Origin: an uncultured Candidatus Saccharibacteria bacterium
GTDB lineage: Bacteria; Patescibacteriota; Minisyncoccia; Phycocordibacterales; Phycocordibacteraceae
Direction: 5' to 3'
Assembly (NCBI GenBank): GCA_964398865.1
Contig: CAYNOO010000002.1
Location: forward strand, 3,588-67,587
DNA: 64,000 bases
The position numbers and the translations under genes were made by a program. This document shows positions 3,669-64,000 of the stretch, piece by piece. Position 1 is the first letter of the stretch. Each line of letters opens with the position of its first letter. The notes beneath the pieces are model-generated. The model saw only the letters and a list, made by a program, of their open reading frames with translations, made no database searches and had not been told where the DNA came from.

Positions 3669-3724
3669 TTCGGTCACGCTATCCTAACGCAAAATTTCTT
3701 TCTTTACCATGTTAGAATTTCCGC

Positions 3725-4675
3725 ATGTCGCAGTTTCAAGGAGATGCAATTTTCTGGGTTGAGGTGGAGAAGATACGCCCGAATCAATACCAGCCGAGAA
3801 CTGAGTTTGATGAAGCGAAGCTGAAAGACCTTGCCGGTTCAATACGCCAGTATGGCGTCTTGCAGCCCTTGATGGTGACGCGTTTTGAGGAGTCGCGAGA
3901 AGATGGCGGGCTCTCAACATACTACGAGCTTATTGCAGGCGAGCGGAGACTCCGAGCCTCAAAACTTGCTGGTCTTTCACAAGTGCCAGTTATCATTCGC
4001 TCCACTGAAGAGCAGAGTCGCGTGAGGTTGGAACTCGCCATCATTGAGAACCTTCAGCGCGAAGATTTGAATGCCATTGATCGCGCACGCGCGTTTGACC
4101 GCTTACAGAAAGAATTTAACTTAAACAACACTGAGATTGCCGCAAAGGTGGGGAAGAGTCGCGAATATGTATCAAACTCGATTCGTCTCTTGGCGCTGCC
4201 AGCCGAGATGCAACAGGCAGTGATTGGAGGCGCAATTTATGAGGGTCATGCGCGCGCACTTCTTATGCTTACGGACAGACCGGAAGAGCAGAAAACGGTG
4301 TTCCGCGACATTCTGGTAAGAAAATTGTCGGTTCGTGACGTCGAACAGATGACGCGTCAAATTGCAGTCGAGAGAGCTCGCAAGCGCGATGTCACTCCGG
4401 AGATTGAGGCGCTTGAGCGTGCCTTCGCGGAGTCGCTAGGCACGAAGGTAGAAATAAAATCACAGGAGAAGGGCGGAAAACTCATCATCGATTTCTTTTC
4501 GACGGAAGACTTGGAGGGAATGCTCGCGCATATGGAGCGCCATAGTGCGTCTCCTGAGGCTAAGAACGCTACTCCTCCGAGCACGGAAACAAGAAATGAC
4601 ATGGTAGACGTGCCTTCAGAGTTGGACTCTGCTCCTGCCGATGATAACTTTTCTCTAGAGCATTTTTCTATTTAA
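3725..4675 (+). CDS. parB: ParB/Spo0J family chromosome partitioning protein
   Basis: ParB box LIAGERRLRAS plus a helix-turn-helix region. No parA gene is adjacent. Confidence 0.9.
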   Translation: MSQFQGDAIFWVEVEKIRPNQYQPRTEFDEAKLKDLAGSIRQYGVLQPLMVTRFEESREDGGLSTYYELIAGERRLRASKLAGLSQVPVIIRSTEEQSRVRLELAIIENLQREDLNAIDRARAFDRLQKEFNLNNTEIAAKVGKSREYVSNSIRLLALPAEMQQAVIGGAIYEGHARALLMLTDRPEEQKTVFRDILVRKLSVRDVEQMTRQIAVERARKRDVTPEIEALERAFAESLGTKVEIKSQEKGGKLIIDFFSTEDLEGMLAHMERHSASPEAKNATPPSTETRNDMVDVPSELDSAPADDNFSLEHFSI

Positions 4676-6198: not shown

Positions 6199-7043
6199 GT
6201 TGGAGTGCGGTCGAAAACTTAATTTCGGCTCAATGCAAATTTTATGGCTATGAGACAGGACGGCTCGCTCTCAGCGTATTTCCAATACGTTTCAAGGTCC
6301 GCCGGCGTCTCTTGCTTCAGAAAATCTGCATCTCGCTGATCGAAAGCAAGTGTCCGTCCGCACTCCCTCTAGTGTACAGCGCGAAAGGTCTGAGTTCCAT
6401 GTTTGAAGCGTGGGATATTTGACTGAAGGATTTTTATTTAGTAAAACGTATTTTATGAATGAAAAAGCTCCGCATGTATTTGCGTCATGTATGAATTGCC
6501 TTCACGTCATCATGAGCGACGAGCAGCGAGTAGAGGTAGGGATGGGTAGTTTGAAGATACGGTGGGCTCACGCGGTTTGTCCTAGCTAACTCCCCGAATA
6601 GTTCATGGAAGAGAGGTTTCTCCAGGAAAGCAGTCTCAAATGCGAATTGTGCGGGCAGCCTTTGACTGAAGGGCAAAAGATATGCGAGGGAAGTGGGGAG
6701 TCGGGGCTTGCTCACGAATCCTGCGTCCAAGACATCTTTGGATATTCATCCTAACTTCTCTCTACGTTTTATAGTATAGATGCATGGAAAACAGAAGAGT
6801 TCATCGAATGAGTGACGAAAGGAGAGAGCGTAGAATCAACAATCTACGCAAAGGAGTTCAATATTTAACGGCTGCATGGCTTGAAGGCTCTCCTTCGCCA
6901 GAGAAAAACAAACTTCATCACATTGCTTCAACGGCTCAAGTCGAATTATCGCATTCGCCTGAAGTTTCCCGAACAGGCAGGCATGAAATAGTACGAAGAA
7001 GAGTCGCGATCGTTTTGGCTCGGAAGTCGTGACGTTTCTTTTG

Positions 7044-21767: not shown

Positions 21768-21816
21768 TAAGTGATTTGATATATCATATCAGCGATATGA
21801 TATATCAAATCACTTA
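21768..21816. repeat. AT-rich palindrome, copy 2, expanded form (taaGTGATTTGATATATCATATCAGCGATATGATATATCAAATCACtta)
   Basis: A roughly 49-bp near-perfect palindrome built from two overlapping copies of the family motif. It sits between convergent pyrB and pyrC. Confidence 0.8.
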
Positions 21817-22933: not shown

Positions 22934-23299
22934 CTTCTTTTTCTCTATTATCCATATTCGTCTAAATAAGAGAATGGTTTAGAGATTTTGACCAGAGAGT
23001 GGGTTTGTTTTAGAATGCACTTATATGGTTATGGGTCACGAAGGAGTCAGAAAAGAAGAAGCATCTGTTACGCGCACCCCTGCTGGCAACGGCATGTTAT
23101 ATGTTGTTGAGATTGGAAATAAAGCTTTTCGTTTTCTCGGAGAAGGTTCGCATCTGCAGCCATTGCCGCGAAACTCAAAAGGAAGAGAGTGGGATGAAGC
23201 GGCAGCACTTGCTCGCAAGTACGATAGCGATAAGAAGAAGCATTAAAGGTTAAGTTTTGCCGAGGGTATCTCAGGTGGTTTCTGTTATACTTCTGACAA

Positions 23300-25899: not shown

Positions 25900-26130
25900 A
25901 TGCCCGCCAAAAAACTTGTAAAGAAAAAATACACTCATTATCACAAGGACGGCAGCATCTGGGCGAAGGGTTTTACCTCTGGAGGAAAGATGGATGGATA
26001 TTGGGAATGGTTCAGAAAAGATGGAACGAAGATGCGTTCTGGATATTTTAAGAAAAATGTTCAGACAGGTGAGTGGACCACCTACGATAAGAAAGGGGGA
26101 ATCGTCAAAGTCACGAGGATGAAAGATTGA
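25900..26130 (+). CDS. MORN-variant repeat protein (YwqK antitoxin-like)
   Basis: Repeats G.W..Y..dG (HYHKDGSIWAKGFTSGGKMDGYWEWFRKDGTKMRSGYFKKNVQTGEWTTYDKKG). AT-rich. Confidence 0.45.
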   Translation: MPAKKLVKKKYTHYHKDGSIWAKGFTSGGKMDGYWEWFRKDGTKMRSGYFKKNVQTGEWTTYDKKGGIVKVTRMKD

Positions 26131-35777: not shown

Positions 35778-35794
35778 TAGGGTAAAATATACCT

Positions 35795-36832
35795 ATGCGG
35801 GTTGCATCTCTTTTTTCCGGAGCTGGCGGTTTAGACTTGGGCTTTAAGAAAGCCGGTTTTGATGTCGTGTGGGCAAATGAATATGATCCCGCGATTTGGA
35901 AAACATTTGAATTAAATTTCCCTGATACCACTTTAGATCGGCGAAACGTCGTTGACGTTGCTTCGGAAGACATTCCGGATGTTGATGGGATTATTGGCGG
36001 ACCACCGTGCCAGAGCTGGAGCGAAGCGGGAGCTGGCAGGGGGGTCAATGATAAACGCGGGCGACTTTTTTTTGACTATATCCGGATTTTGAAAGATAAA
36101 GAACCTTTATTTTTCTTAGCAGAAAATGTTTCTGGAATCCTTTTCGACCGTCATGCAAGCGCGTTTGCTGAGATAGTGAGGCAGTTTAGCGATGCTGGAT
36201 ATTCGGTGAATTATAAATTATTGAATGCGCATGACTACGACGTTCCTGAAGATCGCCTGCGAGTGATTATCGTGGGCTACCATAAGAAACTTGGGCGAAC
36301 ATTTGAATTTCCTGAACCCATCACTGAAAAGATTTTTCTTAAAGACGCGATTGGCAATTTGCCTCCCGCAACACCGGCAAAGGCGATGAATAAAACTAAT
36401 GGAGAAAACCTTTCCATCCCTAACCACGAATATATGACGGGTGGATTTTCGACTATGTATATGTCGCGTAATCGTGTTCGCTCATGGGGCGAGCCTTCTT
36501 TCACAATTCAGGCAGGAGGTCGCCATGCGCCCATTCATCCGCAGGCGCCAAAAATGCAATTGATTTCCAAGGATGTGCGTATTTTTGCTCCGGGGAAAGA
36601 ACACCTGTACCGACGCTTATCGGTCCGTGAGTGCGCGCGCATTCAGACTTTCCCTGATAATTTTATTTTTGATTATAAAAATATCGGAGACGGCTACAAG
36701 ATGATCGGTAACGCGGTGCCAGTTAATTTTGCTAAAGCTATCGCGAAAAAAATAAAAAAAGATCTTTCAATGGGGCGCTCTACTTCGAGGCAATCGCTCA
36801 AAGGAGGTAAAGAGTTCGCTCTATTTGCCTAA
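35795..36832 (+). CDS. DNA (cytosine-5)-methyltransferase, M.HaeIII-like (GGCC family)
   Basis: Motif I FSGAGGLDLGF, motif IV GGPPCQSWS and ENV. The variable region (NKTNGEN, PNHEY, MSRNRVRSW, KEHLYRRLSVRECARIQTFPDNFIF, DGYKMIGNAVPVN) matches M.HaeIII as I recall it. Confidence 0.85.
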   Translation: MRVASLFSGAGGLDLGFKKAGFDVVWANEYDPAIWKTFELNFPDTTLDRRNVVDVASEDIPDVDGIIGGPPCQSWSEAGAGRGVNDKRGRLFFDYIRILKDKEPLFFLAENVSGILFDRHASAFAEIVRQFSDAGYSVNYKLLNAHDYDVPEDRLRVIIVGYHKKLGRTFEFPEPITEKIFLKDAIGNLPPATPAKAMNKTNGENLSIPNHEYMTGGFSTMYMSRNRVRSWGEPSFTIQAGGRHAPIHPQAPKMQLISKDVRIFAPGKEHLYRRLSVRECARIQTFPDNFIFDYKNIGDGYKMIGNAVPVNFAKAIAKKIKKDLSMGRSTSRQSLKGGKEFALFA

Positions 36833-42818: not shown

Positions 42819-43085
42819 ATGGACATACTTCTCATTAATATCGTCGGCTACACCGCGAGCGTTGTTGGCACCTCGTTGATGTTGCCTCAGATGTATAGGT
42901 CGTTGAAGACAAAAAGCGTCGAAGACCTTTCGTGGGGCATGCTCATACTTTATTTCCTGAACTGTGCTCTGTGGCTTATGTATGGAATCTTAATAGGTGC
43001 GATGCCAGTCATCATCACGAATGCAGTGGCGCTTCTCATAAGTATTATCCAGATTGCTCTGAAGATGCGGTATTCGAAACACTAG
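42819..43085 (+). CDS. SemiSWEET / PQ-loop family sugar transporter
   Basis: 88 aa, 3 transmembrane segments and the PQ motif (LPQMYRSLKTKS). Confidence 0.75.
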   Translation: MDILLINIVGYTASVVGTSLMLPQMYRSLKTKSVEDLSWGMLILYFLNCALWLMYGILIGAMPVIITNAVALLISIIQIALKMRYSKH

Positions 43086-48290: not shown

Positions 48291-48323
48291 CTAAACAGGT
48301 TCTCTGGTTGTTATACTGAATAT

Positions 48324-49280
48324 ATGAATTTACACGACACTGCTTACGCGCTCATGCGAGATGGTAAGGGTGTGCTTGCAGCGGATGAAGACACTGCGAC
48401 CTTGGAGAAACGTTTTTCAATTTTTAATATTCCGTGCACAGAAGATTCGCGCCGAAGATATCGTGAGCTTGTATTTACGACACCGGGGATCGAATCGTTT
48501 CTCTCAGCGGTCATTCTTTCGGAAGAAGGAATGCGACAGAGCAGTGCGAGTGGAAATATTTTTTCAGAGCTTATCGCTTCAAAAGATATTCTTGTTGGTG
48601 TACATCTTGATGAAAATGTACCAGGCGATGTATCACGCATCCAAGAATATAAATCGCTTGCTGCGGTGTGCGTAAAAAAACGCATCACTATAGAAGTTGC
48701 AGACACGTCGAGTGAAAATTTTCGCACAGAGACGCAAAGTCTTGCAGAGTTCGCACGCGCCTGCCAAGAGAAATCTCTCGTTCCCATTTTAGGATTGGAA
48801 TTAGTACAGGTAGGTCCGCACACTGCCGCGCAAGCGGAAGATGCGCTCATCAAAGGTCTTTCTGTACTCGTTGATTCTCTCCAAACGAGCGGAGTGGATT
48901 ACAAGGGTCTGATTATTGAAACAAGTATGGCAAGCACGGGGACGGAGAATCCTTTACCTGCTGAGTCTCGCGAGGTTGCCGAGAGGACGGTGCGCGCGCT
49001 TTCCGTTGCTGTCCCAGCGTCTATTGGGGGAATTCTTTTCTTTTCTGATGGAGAAACTCCAGAATCCGCGACTGCAGACCTTAATGCAATTGCACGCTTA
49101 GAGCCGTTCCCGTGGTCTGTTGCATTTTGTTTTTCTCGTGCGCTCCAAGAACCAGTACTCAAGGTATGGCTGGGACAAGAAGAAAACGTAGCCGATGCAC
49201 AGGCTGCTCTGTACGCCCGACTTGCTTTGAATGTGCGGGCTGATGGTGCTGGATACGGTTTAGGAATGGAAGCCACTTGA
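48324..49280 (+). CDS. fba: fructose-bisphosphate aldolase, class I
   Basis: GKGVLAADEDTATLEKRF class I aldolase N-terminal motif. 318 aa. Confidence 0.8.
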   Translation: MNLHDTAYALMRDGKGVLAADEDTATLEKRFSIFNIPCTEDSRRRYRELVFTTPGIESFLSAVILSEEGMRQSSASGNIFSELIASKDILVGVHLDENVPGDVSRIQEYKSLAAVCVKKRITIEVADTSSENFRTETQSLAEFARACQEKSLVPILGLELVQVGPHTAAQAEDALIKGLSVLVDSLQTSGVDYKGLIIETSMASTGTENPLPAESREVAERTVRALSVAVPASIGGILFFSDGETPESATADLNAIARLEPFPWSVAFCFSRALQEPVLKVWLGQEENVADAQAALYARLALNVRADGAGYGLGMEAT

Positions 49281-57663: not shown

Positions 57664-57959
57664 ATCTGAGTACACGACTTTACAAGTAAATTTTTCCTGT
57701 TATTATCCTACACAATATGGCATTTGGAATGCGGGAGACAGCAGTTCGCACAGAGGGAGCATTTCAATGCGAAAGGTGCGAGGATAAAGGCGTTTACGAA
57801 ATGGGAGTCTGGAATAGATCTCTGCAAATTGAGCAAACTCGCTACAACGCATGTTATTGCAAGGAGGGAGAGCGGTGGCAAGCTATTCTTCCTGCCAATC
57901 GACCTTTCTGACGGTCATTTTGCTAAAACTAAGCGAGCACAAAAGAGTACAATGGGGGC

Positions 57960-59087
57960 ATGGAACCCCTCGCCGCCAAGATACGACCCAAGAACCTTGA
58001 TGAGTTCACTGGGCAGGAGCACCTAGTAGGAGCAGGCAAGCCGCTTCGCGTTGCGATAGAAGAGAAGCATCGTTTCTCATTCATATTGTGGGGACCACCA
58101 GGGGTTGGGAAGACGACGCTTGCACGCATATATGCCGATTCACTGGATGCTGTATTTTTTGAACTCTCTGCCGTTGCGGCGGGGAAAGACGATATTCGTA
58201 ACGTTGCGGCTGCTGATACGGAAGGCAAACCAAAAATACTTTTCTTGGATGAGATTCATCGTTTCAATAAGGCACAGCAGGATTTCCTTCTGCCGTTTGT
58301 AGAGAAGGGAGAGTTGACGCTCATTGGTGCAACCACGGAGAATCCGTCTTTTGAAGTTATTCCAGCGCTCTTGTCTCGTGCACGTGTGTTTGTTTTAAAA
58401 CCCATTGCAGAAGATGAAATGAAAGGGATAGTGAAGCGAACAGGCATCAAGACAGGTAAAGGAGCACTCGACTGGATCATCGCGTATTCGAACGGCGACG
58501 CACGAGCTGCCATAACTATTATTGAGAACACTGAGCGTTTGTATGGGAAAGTCACATCAGAAACGCTTCAAGAATCATTGCAGTCAGGGAGACTCCGCTA
58601 CGACAAGAAAGGCGAAGAGCATTTCGATACTATCTCTGCCTTCATAAAAAGCATGCGGGCAAGTCAGCCTGATGCCGCGATGTATTATCTCGCTCGCATG
58701 CTTCAGGGAGGAGAAGATCCGGTGTTTGTTGCACGGCGTATGGTGATTTTTGCGAGCGAAGACATAGGACTCGCGCAGCCAACCGCCTTGGTAGTGGCGA
58801 ACGCAGTTTTTGATGCAGTGCGAGCTATTGGAATGCCAGAGGCTTCGATAAACCTCGCACACGGTGTTGCGTATCTATCTCGCTCTAAAAAAGACCGTAG
58901 CGCCTACGATGCCCTCATTGCCGCCGGGGCAGATGCTGAAAAGACCGGCAATCTCCCCATTCCTTTACATGTACGAAATGCCCCAACCAAATTGATGAAA
59001 GAGCTTGGCTACGGAAAGGGGTATAAAAAATATAATACTGAAAGCTACCTACCCGACAAATTAAAGAACAAAAAATATCTTAACTGA
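57960..59087 (+). CDS. rarA: replication-associated recombination protein A (AAA+ ATPase)
   Basis: IRPKNLDEFTGQEHL, P-loop GPPGVGKTT, a DEIHRF Walker B and MgsA C-terminal helices. 375 aa. Confidence 0.8.
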   Translation: MEPLAAKIRPKNLDEFTGQEHLVGAGKPLRVAIEEKHRFSFILWGPPGVGKTTLARIYADSLDAVFFELSAVAAGKDDIRNVAAADTEGKPKILFLDEIHRFNKAQQDFLLPFVEKGELTLIGATTENPSFEVIPALLSRARVFVLKPIAEDEMKGIVKRTGIKTGKGALDWIIAYSNGDARAAITIIENTERLYGKVTSETLQESLQSGRLRYDKKGEEHFDTISAFIKSMRASQPDAAMYYLARMLQGGEDPVFVARRMVIFASEDIGLAQPTALVVANAVFDAVRAIGMPEASINLAHGVAYLSRSKKDRSAYDALIAAGADAEKTGNLPIPLHVRNAPTKLMKELGYGKGYKKYNTESYLPDKLKNKKYLN

Positions 59088-59107
59088 TATGATATATCAT
59101 ATCAGTT
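59080..59107. repeat. AT-rich perfect palindrome, copy 3 (ttaaCTGATATGATATATCATATCAGtttt)
   Basis: Overlaps the rarA stop and lies 57 bp upstream of uvrB. The CTG...CAG ends are faintly LexA-box-like. Confidence 0.8.
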
Positions 59108-59163
59108 TTTGAATGCGGGATTTTTAAACTCCATACGTATCGGGCTTTTGTTATACTGCATCG

Positions 59164-61248
<2,085 letters not shown>

Positions 61249-61257
61249 AGCAGAAAT

Positions 61258-61419
61258 TTACCCAATAGGTTCAGTACTCACGCTTTCGTTGACCTCTCCA
61301 TCCCAATCATCTTCCTTTTCTGCGTACCATGCCATCGGAACCTTTGTTTCAGGGGGTTTTATAAAAGCTCCTAATAGATTTGCAACCCAAGGGTTTTTCG
61401 ATTCGAAGTCTTCAAACAT
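61258..61419 (-). CDS. small acidic hypothetical protein (53 aa, MFEDFESKNPWVANLLGAFIKPP...)
   Basis: Minus-strand ORF directly downstream of a duplicated promoter-like module. Weak paralogy to 61443-61643. Confidence 0.25.
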   Translation of the reverse strand: MFEDFESKNPWVANLLGAFIKPPETKVPMAWYAEKEDDWDGEVNESVSTEPIG

Positions 61420-61450
61420 ATAGAGACTATATCGAAATCTGACTAAGATG
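61417..61450 (-). promoter_or_regulatory. promoter-like module copy A (-35 CGACAT, 16-nt spacer, -10 TATAGT, 6 nt, then ATG)
   Basis: About 27 of 34 bp are identical to the module at 61641-61674. It also contains the stop codon of the upstream small gene. Confidence 0.4.
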
Positions 61451-61643
61451 TCGCTTCGGCTAGGTAATCGCCCACTGCTTTTCCTAGCGTCTCATCCCAA
61501 ACGTCATCGAAAGGTCTTTTTCTTCCCTCTGCATCCATTTTTTTTAATACGATATTCTCGAGCCTGCGATCGTCGCCGCGCGGTATATAAACCGTTCTCA
61601 AAATGTAATCGCTTGGATTTTCTGGAGCGCCTTCCATCGTCAT
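61443..61643 (-). CDS. small acidic hypothetical protein (66 aa, MTMEGAPENPSDYILRTVYIPRGDD...)
   Basis: Minus-strand ORF. Its ATG lies 6 nt downstream of a TATAAT box. Confidence 0.3.
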   Translation of the reverse strand: MTMEGAPENPSDYILRTVYIPRGDDRRLENIVLKKMDAEGRKRPFDDVWDETLGKAVGDYLAEATS

Positions 61644-61674
61644 ATGGAAATTATATCGAAACCTGACTAAGATG
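61641..61674 (-). promoter_or_regulatory. promoter-like module copy B (-35 TTGCAT, 16-nt spacer, -10 TATAAT, 6 nt, then ATG; leaderless)
   Basis: Direct repeat of 61417-61450, 224 bp away. Confidence 0.4.
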
Positions 61675-61727
61675 CAATTACTTGGTATGGTATAGGGTAT
61701 ACCGCATTTGCGGAGATTTCGCATAGT

Positions 61728-64000
61728 ATGGCAAAGGAAAAAACAAAAGATACGCATGATGCAGACCTCGGCACTGACAAAATAGTCATACGAGGTGCGA
61801 AGACACATAACCTCAAGAATGTGTCACTTGAAATACCGCGAAACAAACTCGTAGTATTTACTGGTCTTTCCGGATCAGGCAAATCGTCCCTTGCTTTCGA
61901 TACTATTTTTGCCGAAGGTCAGCGACGCTATGTGGAATCCTTGTCTGCGTATGCACGACAATTCTTGAACCAGATGTCCAAGCCAGAAGTCGAGGAGATT
62001 ACCGGTCTTTCACCTGCAATCGCCATCGACCAGAAGAGCCGCTCCAACAATCCTCGCTCAACGGTCGCTACCATCACTGAAATCTATGACTACATGCGTA
62101 TTCTTTATGCGCGCGTAGGGCAGCCATATTGTGTGAATGATGACACTCCTATCCAGAAGCTTTCCAAGGAAGAGATTATGAAAATAATTCTTCGTACTGT
62201 AGAGGCTGTGGACTTGAAGCAGACTGCCAAGCGCGCGATGGGAGTTACCTATAATGATTTGAAAGTTCGTATCTTGGCTCCCGTCGTTGTAGGTAGAAAA
62301 GGTGAGTACTACCAACTCTTATATGATTTGCTCGGCAAAGGCTATGAGAAAGTTATTGTGGACGGCACAGAGCACTCGCTTCGCGAGAGAATTGCCCTTG
62401 AGAAGAATAAGGTGCACGACATTGATGTCGTCATCGATGAGCTTTTTGTAACTGAATTCGAGAACTCGAAAGCAGATGCGAGAGAGCGAATGTCAGAAGC
62501 TATCGAGCTTGCGCTTAAGGAATCGAATGGACTCATTAAGATAGAAAACCCACTCAAGGAAATGCGAATTCTCTCCGCGAAGTTTATCTGCCCCTTGGAC
62601 GGGTCATCATTCCCTGAAGTTGAACCGAGACTCTTCTCATTCAATAGCCCCTATGGTGCATGCCCTGAGTGTCATGGGCTTGGGACAATTGGCTTTTTCA
62701 ATCTAGACATCTGTCCTGTGTGCGAAGGCAAACGACTTCGCCCGGAAGCATTACGAGTGTTTTTAGGTGGCGGTCCGCCGAAAGACTCTGCCGTTAAAAC
62801 TAAGACGGAGGCAGCTGGGCTTAACATCGTTGATCTTACGCGTCTCTCCATACTTGATGCGAAAGATTATATCGAGAACCTGAAGCTCACTAAGAAGCAG
62901 GAAGAGATTTCAAGTGCCATATTGAAAGAGATTCTCGCACGACTCCAGTTCATGATTGATGTGGGTATCGGGTATCTCACGCTTGACCGCACGGCAAACA
63001 CGCTCTCTGGCGGAGAAGCGCAGCGTATTCGGCTTGCGTCTCAGCTTGGCAGCGGGCTCGTGGGCGCACTCTACGTGCTTGATGAGCCGACTATCGGCTT
63101 GCACCAGAGAGACAATGACCGACTGGTAAAGACGCTTCTTCGACTTCGAGATTTGGGCAACAGTATCATCGTCGTTGAGCACGATGAAGATACGATATTT
63201 TCTTCAGACTTTATTGTTGATATTGGACCTGGCGCAGGAGTGCACGGTGGCGAGATAGTGGTTGCCGGATGGCTCGATAAGCTTCTTACCGCAAAACGGA
63301 ATGACTCCGGATCGCTCACGCTTTCATATCTTCGTGGAGAAAAGCAGATTCCTGTCCCAACAGAGCGACGCACCGAGCAGAAAGGGGCACTGAAGTTACG
63401 GCAGGGAAATATCTTCAATATCAAGAACATGGATATTGATGTTCCGTTGGGGAGGCTGATTACCGTTACCGGCGTATCTGGCTCTGGAAAGTCCTCGTTC
63501 ATGTATGAGCTTCTCTATAAAAATTTGCGTGGAAAATTGGAGAGAAATTACCGCACGAATAAGTTGTACAATTGCACAAGCTTTTCTGGCACGGAGTATT
63601 TGAGTCGGGTCATTCTTATTGATCAATCATCCATAGGGCGCACTCCTCGCTCTAACCCGGCAACCTACACCGGTGCGTTTTCCCACATCCGCGACATGTT
63701 TGCGGCGACTCCTGAGGCTCGTGCTCGCGGATGGAAAGGCGGTAGGTTCTCTTTCAACGTCAAAGGCGGTCGCTGCGAAGCGTGCCAGGGCAATGGGACT
63801 ATCGCCGTTGAGATGCATTTCTTACCTACGGTGTATGTGACGTGTGACGTGTGCGATGGCAAGCGGTTTATGAAAGAGACATTGGAAGTGGAATATCGGA
63901 AAAAGAATATTCACCAAGTACTCTCTATGACCGTGGAAGAAGGATTGGAGTTCTTCAACGATATCCCCGCTATTCATGATCGTTTGCAGACCCTTTCAGA
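61728..64000 (+). CDS. uvrA: excinuclease ABC subunit A (partial, continues past the window end)
   Basis: MAKEKTKDTHDADLGTDKIVIRGAKTHNLKNVSLEIPRNKLVVFTGLSGSGKSSLAFDTIFAEGQRRYVESLSAYARQFL. Zn-finger Cys clusters follow later (CPECHGLG..., CEACQGNG). Missed by the ORF track because there is no stop in the window. Confidence 0.95.
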   Translation, partial: MAKEKTKDTHDADLGTDKIVIRGAKTHNLKNVSLEIPRNKLVVFTGLSGSGKSSLAFDTIFAEGQRRYVESLSAYARQFLNQMSKPEVEEITGLSPAIAIDQKSRSNNPRSTVATITEIYDYMRILYARVGQPYCVNDDTPIQKLSKEEIMKIILRTVEAVDLKQTAKRAMGVTYNDLKVRILAPVVVGRKGEYYQLLYDLLGKGYEKVIVDGTEHSLRERIALEKNKVHDIDVVIDELFVTEFENSKADARERMSEAIELALKESNGLIKIENPLKEMRILSAKFICPLDGSSFPEVEPRLFSFNSPYGACPECHGLGTIGFFNLDICPVCEGKRLRPEALRVFLGGGPPKDSAVKTKTEAAGLNIVDLTRLSILDAKDYIENLKLTKKQEEISSAILKEILARLQFMIDVGIGYLTLDRTANTLSGGEAQRIRLASQLGSGLVGALYVLDEPTIGLHQRDNDRLVKTLLRLRDLGNSIIVVEHDEDTIFSSDFIVDIGPGAGVHGGEIVVAGWLDKLLTAKRNDSGSLTLSYLRGEKQIPVPTERRTEQKGALKLRQGNIFNIKNMDIDVPLGRLITVTGVSGSGKSSFMYELLYKNLRGKLERNYRTNKLYNCTSFSGTEYLSRVILIDQSSIGRTPRSNPATYTGAFSHIRDMFAATPEARARGWKGGRFSFNVKGGRCEACQGNGTIAVEMHFLPTVYVTCDVCDGKRFMKETLEVEYRKKNIHQVLSMTVEEGLEFFNDIPAIHDRLQTLS

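Follow-up and report, generated by a model that had tools for sequence, protein, structure and literature searches.

Two probable leaderless mini-genes behind near-identical promoter and start modules in a lineage-specific segment of the uvrB-uvrA spacer of a Patescibacteria genome

Two short open reading frames, ORF1 and ORF2, lie on the minus strand between uvrB and uvrA in the 64-kb stretch of Patescibacteria/Parcubacteria DNA analysed here (the window), which stems from a metagenome-assembled genome, each behind an almost identical promoter-like module. The locus raises the question of whether these frames are genes, how they came to share a module, and whether their position says anything about their function. 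The features concerned are as follows.

59164 to 61248, plus strand: uvrB (from the sequence and the ORF list)
61728, plus strand: start of uvrA (from the sequence and the ORF list)
61249 to 61727: uvrB-uvrA spacer, 479 bp
61643 to 61443, minus strand: ORF1, an acidic orphan of 66 aa, MTMEGAPENPSDYILRTVYIPRGDDRRLENIVLKKMDAEGRKRPFDDVWDETLGKAVGDYLAEATS
61419 to 61258, minus strand: ORF2, a very acidic orphan of 53 aa, MFEDFESKNPWVANLLGAFIKPPETKVPMAWYAEKEDDWDGEVNESVSTEPIG
61641 to 61677, minus strand: module A, the putative promoter and start of ORF1 (from the sequence, the 34-nt repeat and the N6 geometry)
61417 to 61453, minus strand: module B, the putative promoter and start of ORF2 (from the sequence and the 34-nt repeat)
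61249 to 61685, no strand assigned: lineage-specific segment of about 437 bp, missing from the closest relatives
61683 to 61727, plus strand: conserved uvrA promoter and leader, outside the insert and common to six relatives

The two minus-strand frames of 66 and 53 aa were already described in a sequence-only reading of this DNA, and their coordinates agree with it, the spacer measuring 479 bp. Module A consists of TTGCAT (61677-61672), 16 nt, TATAAT (61655-61650), TTCCAT and the ATG of ORF1 (61643-61641). Module B has CGACAT (61453-61448), 16 nt, TATAGT (61431-61426), CTCTAT and the ATG of ORF2 (61419-61417). The -35 elements are weak, with 3-4 matches out of 6, and for module B a promoter scan offers the alternative GCGACA-17-TATAGT, with 9 of 12 matches. 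The same reading had placed near-identical 34-nt modules at equal spacing before both ATGs and the stop codon of the upstream gene within the downstream module. Both statements are borne out, the first by 88% identity with the -10 at 6 nt, the second by the TAG of ORF1 (61445-61443), which lies inside module B.

Leaderless mRNAs had been proposed for both frames, and the geometry agrees with this proposal: the -10 ends 6 nt before both ATGs, and the same N6 is found at uvrB (TATACT-GCATCG-ATG), at rarA (TACAAT-GGGGGC-ATG) and at other large genes. Considering both strands, the window holds 31 TAnnnT-N6-ATG sites, about 10 of which open an ORF of 186 aa or longer at its first start codon, uvrB and rarA among them. 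A TAnnnT at N6-N8 precedes the 5'-most start in 16 of the 51 ORFs of at least 100 aa, against a background of about 4% of all 2,237 ATGs; when starts within the first 30 codons are also counted, 23 of the 51 qualify. Between roughly one third and one half of the window's genes seem to start leaderless, at a fixed TAnnnT-N6-ATG. ORF1 and ORF2 display the best -10 hexamers among the sites of the window, at the modal spacing, and start with ATG without a Shine-Dalgarno sequence, no purine-rich tract being found in the preceding 6 nt (TTCCAT and CTCTAT, respectively). In relatives, small as well as large genes carry TTGACA-N17-TAnnnT-N6-ATG. As a prediction from promoter geometry, the leaderless reading of ORF1 and ORF2 is well supported.

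Further examples of leaderless-type sites can be found at 59152-59166 (uvrB), 57948-57962 (rarA), 48312-48326, 35783-35797 and 3713-3727. The TAnnnT of the window is often preceded by TG, giving an extended -10, TGTTATACT.

Small leaderless proteins occur in mycobacteria, and a leaderless transcriptome has reportedly been described there. A search of one literature library found no paper on leaderless genes in CPR/Patescibacteria. As in the leaderless small ORFs of Actinobacteria, the -10 at this locus lies about 6-7 nt before an ATG that would also be the transcription start, no Shine-Dalgarno sequence is present, and the products belong with the many that are short, unannotated or lineage-specific. 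Unlike the actinobacterial case, the host is a member of the Patescibacteria/Parcubacteria, and the 34-nt promoter/start module is nearly the same in the two genes, whose transcription starts are predicted from sequence geometry.

With regard to the origin of the spacer, UvrB finds its best relatives in 'Parcubacteria group bacterium Greene0714_7' and in further MAGs of Patescibacteria, and the comparison set was made of the six loci of closest relatives examined (L081, L083, L084, L085, L086 and L087), whose UvrB is 86-92% identical. Synteny is kept in all six, in the order cysS-FKBP-tgt-rarA-uvrB-uvrA-uvrC-ddl. Their uvrB-uvrA spacers measure 35, 72, 69, 235, 128 and 69 nt, and ORF1, ORF2 and the module are absent from every one of them. 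As these spacers are short and do not hold the two ORFs, the segment can be regarded as lineage-specific. The ~45 nt before uvrA are conserved in 6 of 6 relatives and adjoin the insert; since this conserved leader stands directly beside DNA that the relatives do not have, the extra ~437 bp would sit between the uvrB stop and the uvrA promoter. Conservation in relatives, which the sequence-only reading had named as a test, is not found, the ORFs being absent from all relatives recovered. At the level of sequence comparison, this absence shows an apparent lineage-specific insertion rather than non-function. An origin of the insert as a MITE or IS remnant was rejected, as no terminal inverted repeats bracket it and the window contains no other copies.

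The position between the two uvr genes had been called notable. Elsewhere in Patescibacteria, however, the interval is either empty or occupied by unrelated genes. In distant relatives, membrane proteins, cupin-like, MGMT-like and HIT-like proteins and a response regulator can be found there (translations judged by eye), and the uvrB-uvrA junction appears to be one that tolerates insertions across Patescibacteria. Because the genes at this junction are varied and unrelated, the position says little about function, and the ORF1/ORF2 pair is without demonstrable link to nucleotide excision repair.

The spacer of L085 harbors a different, 41-aa leaderless ORF on the plus strand, followed by a clean terminator. 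The cysS-to-ddl gaps of each of L081-L087 contain differing unannotated ORFs of 41-84 aa, many of them with TTGACA-N17-TAnnnT-N6-ATG (e.g., L085 7803-7928, L085 10680-10934, L083 10820-11047 and L086 10937-11170). A single homologous pair is found among them, L083_10820 and L086_10937, located between uvrA and uvrC (E ~1e-6), and none is homologous to ORF1 or ORF2. A gene of the Trp_repressor family (PF01371) is present in L081 and L083, at differing intergenic sites. Like the pair studied here, these ORFs of 41-84 aa occupy gaps of the same syntenic block; unlike it, none lies on the minus strand of the uvrB-uvrA spacer and none has a duplicated module.

The uvrA gene itself is not leaderless. 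It is preceded by a conserved leader of ~45 nt with a -10-like box, a hairpin and TTATTCGTAT-ATG, which is found in the relatives at the following positions.

L081: 8111-8159
L083: 8115-8163
L084: 8103-8151
L085: 7974-8023
L086: 8224-8270
L087: 8111-8157

The hairpin, formed by CCGC (61702-61705) and GCGG (61710-61713), has the general form (A/T)CCGC-loop-GCGG(T); its two inner pairs covary (CG/GC/UA) over 7 genomes and its loop is of variable length. It may have a regulatory role, as RNA or as DNA. Judged against the conserved ATGGCAAAAGAA, uvrA seems to be annotated with too early a start in L081 and L086. The uvrA leader sequence AGATTTCGCATAGT (61714-61727, plus strand) is similar to AGATTTCGATATAGT of module B (61426-61440, minus strand), the likeness being made of an 8-mer and ATAGT with a 1-nt indel, on opposite strands. 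It could hint at a derivation of the module from the uvrA 5' region, and is probably due to chance, because the relatives carry GTTATTCGTATAT at that position.

An AT-rich perfect palindrome, TGATATGATATATCATATCA, is found in 4 copies in the window, with 0 expected by chance.

1416-1435: copy of the palindrome
21772-21791: copy of the palindrome
21793-21812: copy of the palindrome
59085-59104: copy of the palindrome

All copies lie just past gene 3' ends, including one that runs over the stop codon of rarA and precedes the ATG of uvrB by 60 nt. The palindrome probably forms a hairpin, terminator-like or REP-like, that is proper to this genome, and a role of the copy upstream of uvrB as an operator is possible.

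Regarding the coding status of ORF1 and ORF2, a codon log-odds score trained on 36 large genes gives 0.242 per codon for ORF1 and 0.278-0.284 for ORF2, the latter being the top value for any intergenic ATG-ORF of the window with 45-90 aa. Coding chunks of equal length average about 0.245-0.247 +/- 0.09 and non-coding frames -0.165 +/- 0.15; 0.2% of the non-coding chunks reach such scores. A harder null was made from 91 open but spurious ATG-ORFs (45-90 aa) in wrong frames; of these, 2.2% reach the score of ORF1 and 1.1% that of ORF2. For each ORF, none of the other five frames scores as high as the annotated one. The codon composition is suggestive and favors real coding, with the restriction that the frames count 53-66 codons and that acidity alone raises such scores. 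ORF1 and ORF2 are probably two genuine orphan mini-genes.

Other intergenic ATG-ORFs of the window also display coding-like scores, namely 25900-26130 (plus strand, 76 aa, 0.27), 23025-23246 (plus strand, 73 aa, 0.22) and 42819-43085 (plus strand, 88 aa, 0.19), and these three may be further small genes. By contrast, two ORFs that look leaderless, at 6784 (82 aa, -0.14) and 13513 (66 aa, 0.03), come out as non-coding.

The orphan character of both products is marked. Among 5.8 billion proteins, each of ORF1 and ORF2 matches itself only, and no family is found for either of them at E<=10 in Pfam, NCBIfam or PHROGs. A full HMMER scan of 1.84e9 representatives with ORF1 yields 5 non-self matches. 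Four of these were discarded, being either a translated CRISPR array or long proteins rich in repeats, in which 3-8 repeated stretches inflate the E-value; the fifth match is to a protein of 1733 aa and is spread over 4 stretches. The best match among PDB sequences, the C-terminus of acetyl-CoA synthase, is non-significant (E 0.4). Within the 64-kb window, no paralogue of ORF1, ORF2 or the insert is found elsewhere. Residues 42-63 of ORF1 (61455-61520, minus strand), which form its C-terminal helix RPFDDVWDETLGKAVGDYLAE, are 49% identical to LDDVWNETFGRAVAHYTSE, a repeated segment of the 506-aa repeat protein P0123, which we take to resemble helicase-associated (HA) domain repeats. This match was considered to be due to chance, because six repeats inflate its E-value and Pfam gives nothing for ORF1.

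The same absence of homologues, together with the absence of the segment from all relatives, feeds the strongest of the competing explanations, according to which the insert would be non-functional, i.e., junk or decaying DNA such as the remnant of an acquired fragment, with frames and promoter-like modules devoid of any role, the frames having been called genes for no other reason than that they are open. The GC content of the insert (42.8% vs 48.5% in the window) is consistent with this, as is the fact that other gaps, in the window and in the relatives, also carry many unconserved small ORFs. However, decaying DNA would hardly be expected to exhibit two consensus -10 boxes at the exact spacing of the real genes of this genome, nor two ORFs that both score as gene-like with the annotated frame best (joint chance ~2e-4 if independent), nor a 34-nt module kept at 88% in randomised surroundings. 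Considering both sides, we regard a non-functional insert as unlikely, albeit as the alternative that retains the most weight.

Another explanation accepts the promoters as real and assigns the role to the transcripts, the ORFs being incidental. ORF2 and uvrB are convergent, with 9 nt between their stop codons, and no minus-strand terminator is found in 60900-62100, hence none after ORF2. With stops so close and no terminator, the transcripts probably run antisense into uvrB. At the other end of the insert, the -35-like hexamer of module A lies ~9-14 nt from the conserved uvrA -10 region, so that the two promoters stand back-to-back and may compete as divergent promoters. Products acting as RNAs, antisense over the uvrB 3' end and with module A set against the uvrA promoter, would allow the insert to modulate or insulate the expression of uvrB and uvrA, and its transcripts would collide with uvrB read-through. 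Such a role for the transcripts leaves the coding-like codon usage of both ORFs unexplained, however, and the relatives run uvrB and uvrA without such an element. The RNA structure is not unusual either: folding of the spacer against shuffles gives z-scores of 0.35 and -0.61, neither strand being unusually stable. We hold this explanation to be improbable. A structured ncRNA or riboswitch in the spacer was rejected on the basis of these ordinary z-scores and of an Rfam search of the spacer in which the only hit is NEAT1_2 (E 1.4), far under the gathering score.

How the two units came to share a module can be approached through the extent of their likeness. A repeat search recovers a direct repeat of 34 nt (61417-61450 and 61641-61674), 88% identical, with a spacing of 224 nt and 4 differences, all of them transitions. 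The blastn E-value of the repeat is 1e-6, and it is the sole intergenic tandem repeat of its kind in the window. A 22-mer of the module, searched with up to 3 mismatches, is found at these two sites only in 64 kb, and 0 times in 100 shuffles; these copy counts cover one contig of the genome. Of 13 upstream regions of leaderless type, modules A and B form the top pair, identical at 30 of 37 positions where the median is 15 of 37. The 19 nt upstream of the -10 are kept in both modules and are common to no other promoter of the window. Half-sites of the module near other promoters of the window are no more numerous than expected by chance. The module can be written as CATCTTAGTCAGRTTTCGATATART. 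Its 19-base core is matched in 2 JGI metagenome contigs and 1 IMG/VR contig, which were rejected as true copies: because an ATG or ORF at the expected distance is missing from all of them, and one of the contigs is eukaryotic and LINE-like, the three matches were taken as chance.

Outside the module, the likeness is at chance level. The two 224-nt units align near random identity, BLASTP of ORF1 against ORF2 gives no alignment, and local alignment against shuffles yields p=0.24 at the protein level and p=0.45 at the DNA level. These results do not sustain the weakly paralogous N-termini of the sequence-only reading, for which the ATG-fixed ungapped register is marginal (p ~0.02): residues 2-21 reach p 0.025 and residues 2-26 p 0.015, in a range of 0.015-0.03 that is uncorrected for the choice of length. 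The first 60-75 nt of the ORFs are ~40% identical vs a baseline of 27%, with shifted registers reaching 42%.

The related claim of a recent tandem duplication of the gene together with its promoter, which would make the ORFs young paralogues, fares no better, as only the 34-nt module is significantly repeated and the bodies are at chance. In its favor can be cited the head-to-tail tandem arrangement at 224-nt spacing, a DDxWD motif common to both ORFs that lies on a 16-nt repeat of 81% identity, and the marginal similarity of residues 2-25 in the ATG-fixed register with the accompanying DNA identity. A recent event would nevertheless have left the bodies about as alike as the module, and the shifted-register baseline covers the observed DNA identity. 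Because ~88% identity in the module stands against chance-level similarity of the ORF bodies, the pair is not a recent whole-gene duplicate, and young paralogy is given little credence. Two histories remain: either the module would have been copied alone recently, or the pair would be an old duplicate in which the module was constrained and the bodies diverged to saturation. That conservation is even along the module points to an operator common to both units or to copying of the module alone.

As to the proteins themselves, AlphaFold2 (AF2) run on a single sequence gives ORF1 helices at residues 10-17, 25-40 and 45-65 (pLDDT 69, pTM 0.49), and gives ORF2 an N-terminal helix (residues 3-20) with the remainder devoid of regular structure (pLDDT 61). 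Both models are of low confidence, and their fold comparison yields no significant match. ORF1 is probably, according to its model, a three-helix protein. For the suggestions that the products are DNA mimics, anti-sigma-like or toxin-antitoxin-like factors, acidic composition is the sole consistent feature, no significant sequence or fold match being found.

The least likely of the explanations considered is a toxin-antitoxin-like pair, in which ORF1 would be a ribbon-helix-helix (RHH) protein that binds the module as an operator and represses its own promoter and that of ORF2, its partner. It starts from a strand-helix-helix arrangement seen by eye in ORF1 (YILRTVYIP / DDRRLENIVLKKMDAEG / FDDVWDETLGKAVGDYLAE), a lead rather than a test, and from a module spacer that is conserved beyond the need of a promoter and is present at both promoters. 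ORF1 would share with the RHH (CopG/Arc/MetJ) regulators and type II antitoxins a length within 45-70 aa and the possible strand-helix-helix, and a promoter-overlapping repeat could act as operator, as in RHH autoregulators. Unlike these proteins, however, ORF1 matches no profile, neither RHH nor other families appearing in Pfam, NCBIfam or PHROGs at E<=10, and no RHH chain among PDB sequences at that threshold; AF2 predicts a helix and not a strand at residues 10-17, a monomer model of an obligate dimer being weak evidence; ORF2 resembles no toxin, without any family match; and each gene has its own promoter, in contrast to the single operon typical of type II toxin-antitoxin systems. Read from the sequence, the module displays none of the clear internal symmetry expected of an operator. 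We consider such a pair very unlikely.

The explanation that accommodates most of these observations is a lineage-specific gain of ~440 bp carrying two minus-strand leaderless mini-genes with a module that is either constrained or copied, and we give it somewhat better than even chances. According to this explanation, a segment of ~440 bp would have been gained between uvrB and the conserved uvrA promoter, and would carry two separate minus-strand transcription units. In each unit, a module of 34-37 nt (weak -35, spacer of 16-17 nt, consensus -10, 6 nt and ATG) would lead into one small acidic ORF. Beginning at the adenine of the start codon, RNA polymerase would generate a leaderless mRNA translated without a Shine-Dalgarno sequence, and the products would be two small cytoplasmic proteins, that of ORF2 having an N-terminal helix and an acidic unstructured tail. 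The module would have been copied alone recently or, as the module of an old duplicate, would have been constrained, most simply as a shared operator that co-regulates both units. Both minus-strand transcripts would extend antisense into the uvrB 3' end. Transcription, translation, co-regulation and any function of ORF1 and ORF2 are what we infer here from the DNA sequence.

It can further be imagined that the module is a portable leaderless expression cassette, combining promoter, transcription start and start codon in one, although we see this as a long shot. If true, a 5'-terminal AUG would suffice for translation, and copying the module beside an arbitrary sequence would give a new expressed ORF; the pair would then represent a caught-in-the-act case of Parcubacteria filling gaps with lineage-specific mini-proteins. 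In a variant of this idea, the module would also carry an operator, placing both new genes under one regulator beside the uvrA promoter.

Taken together, the pair belongs with lineage-specific small leaderless genes, its unusual feature being a module far better conserved than the genes it would drive, and it amounts to a modest curiosity rather than a novel type of system. If expressed, ORF1 and ORF2 would be two additions to the large and unexplored set of small lineage-specific CPR proteins, and would provide a natural example of two genes with near-identical leaderless modules, usable as a compact expression part. The widespread N6 leaderless starts of the window bear on gene calling and start-site annotation in Patescibacteria, and their significance may outweigh that of the pair itself.
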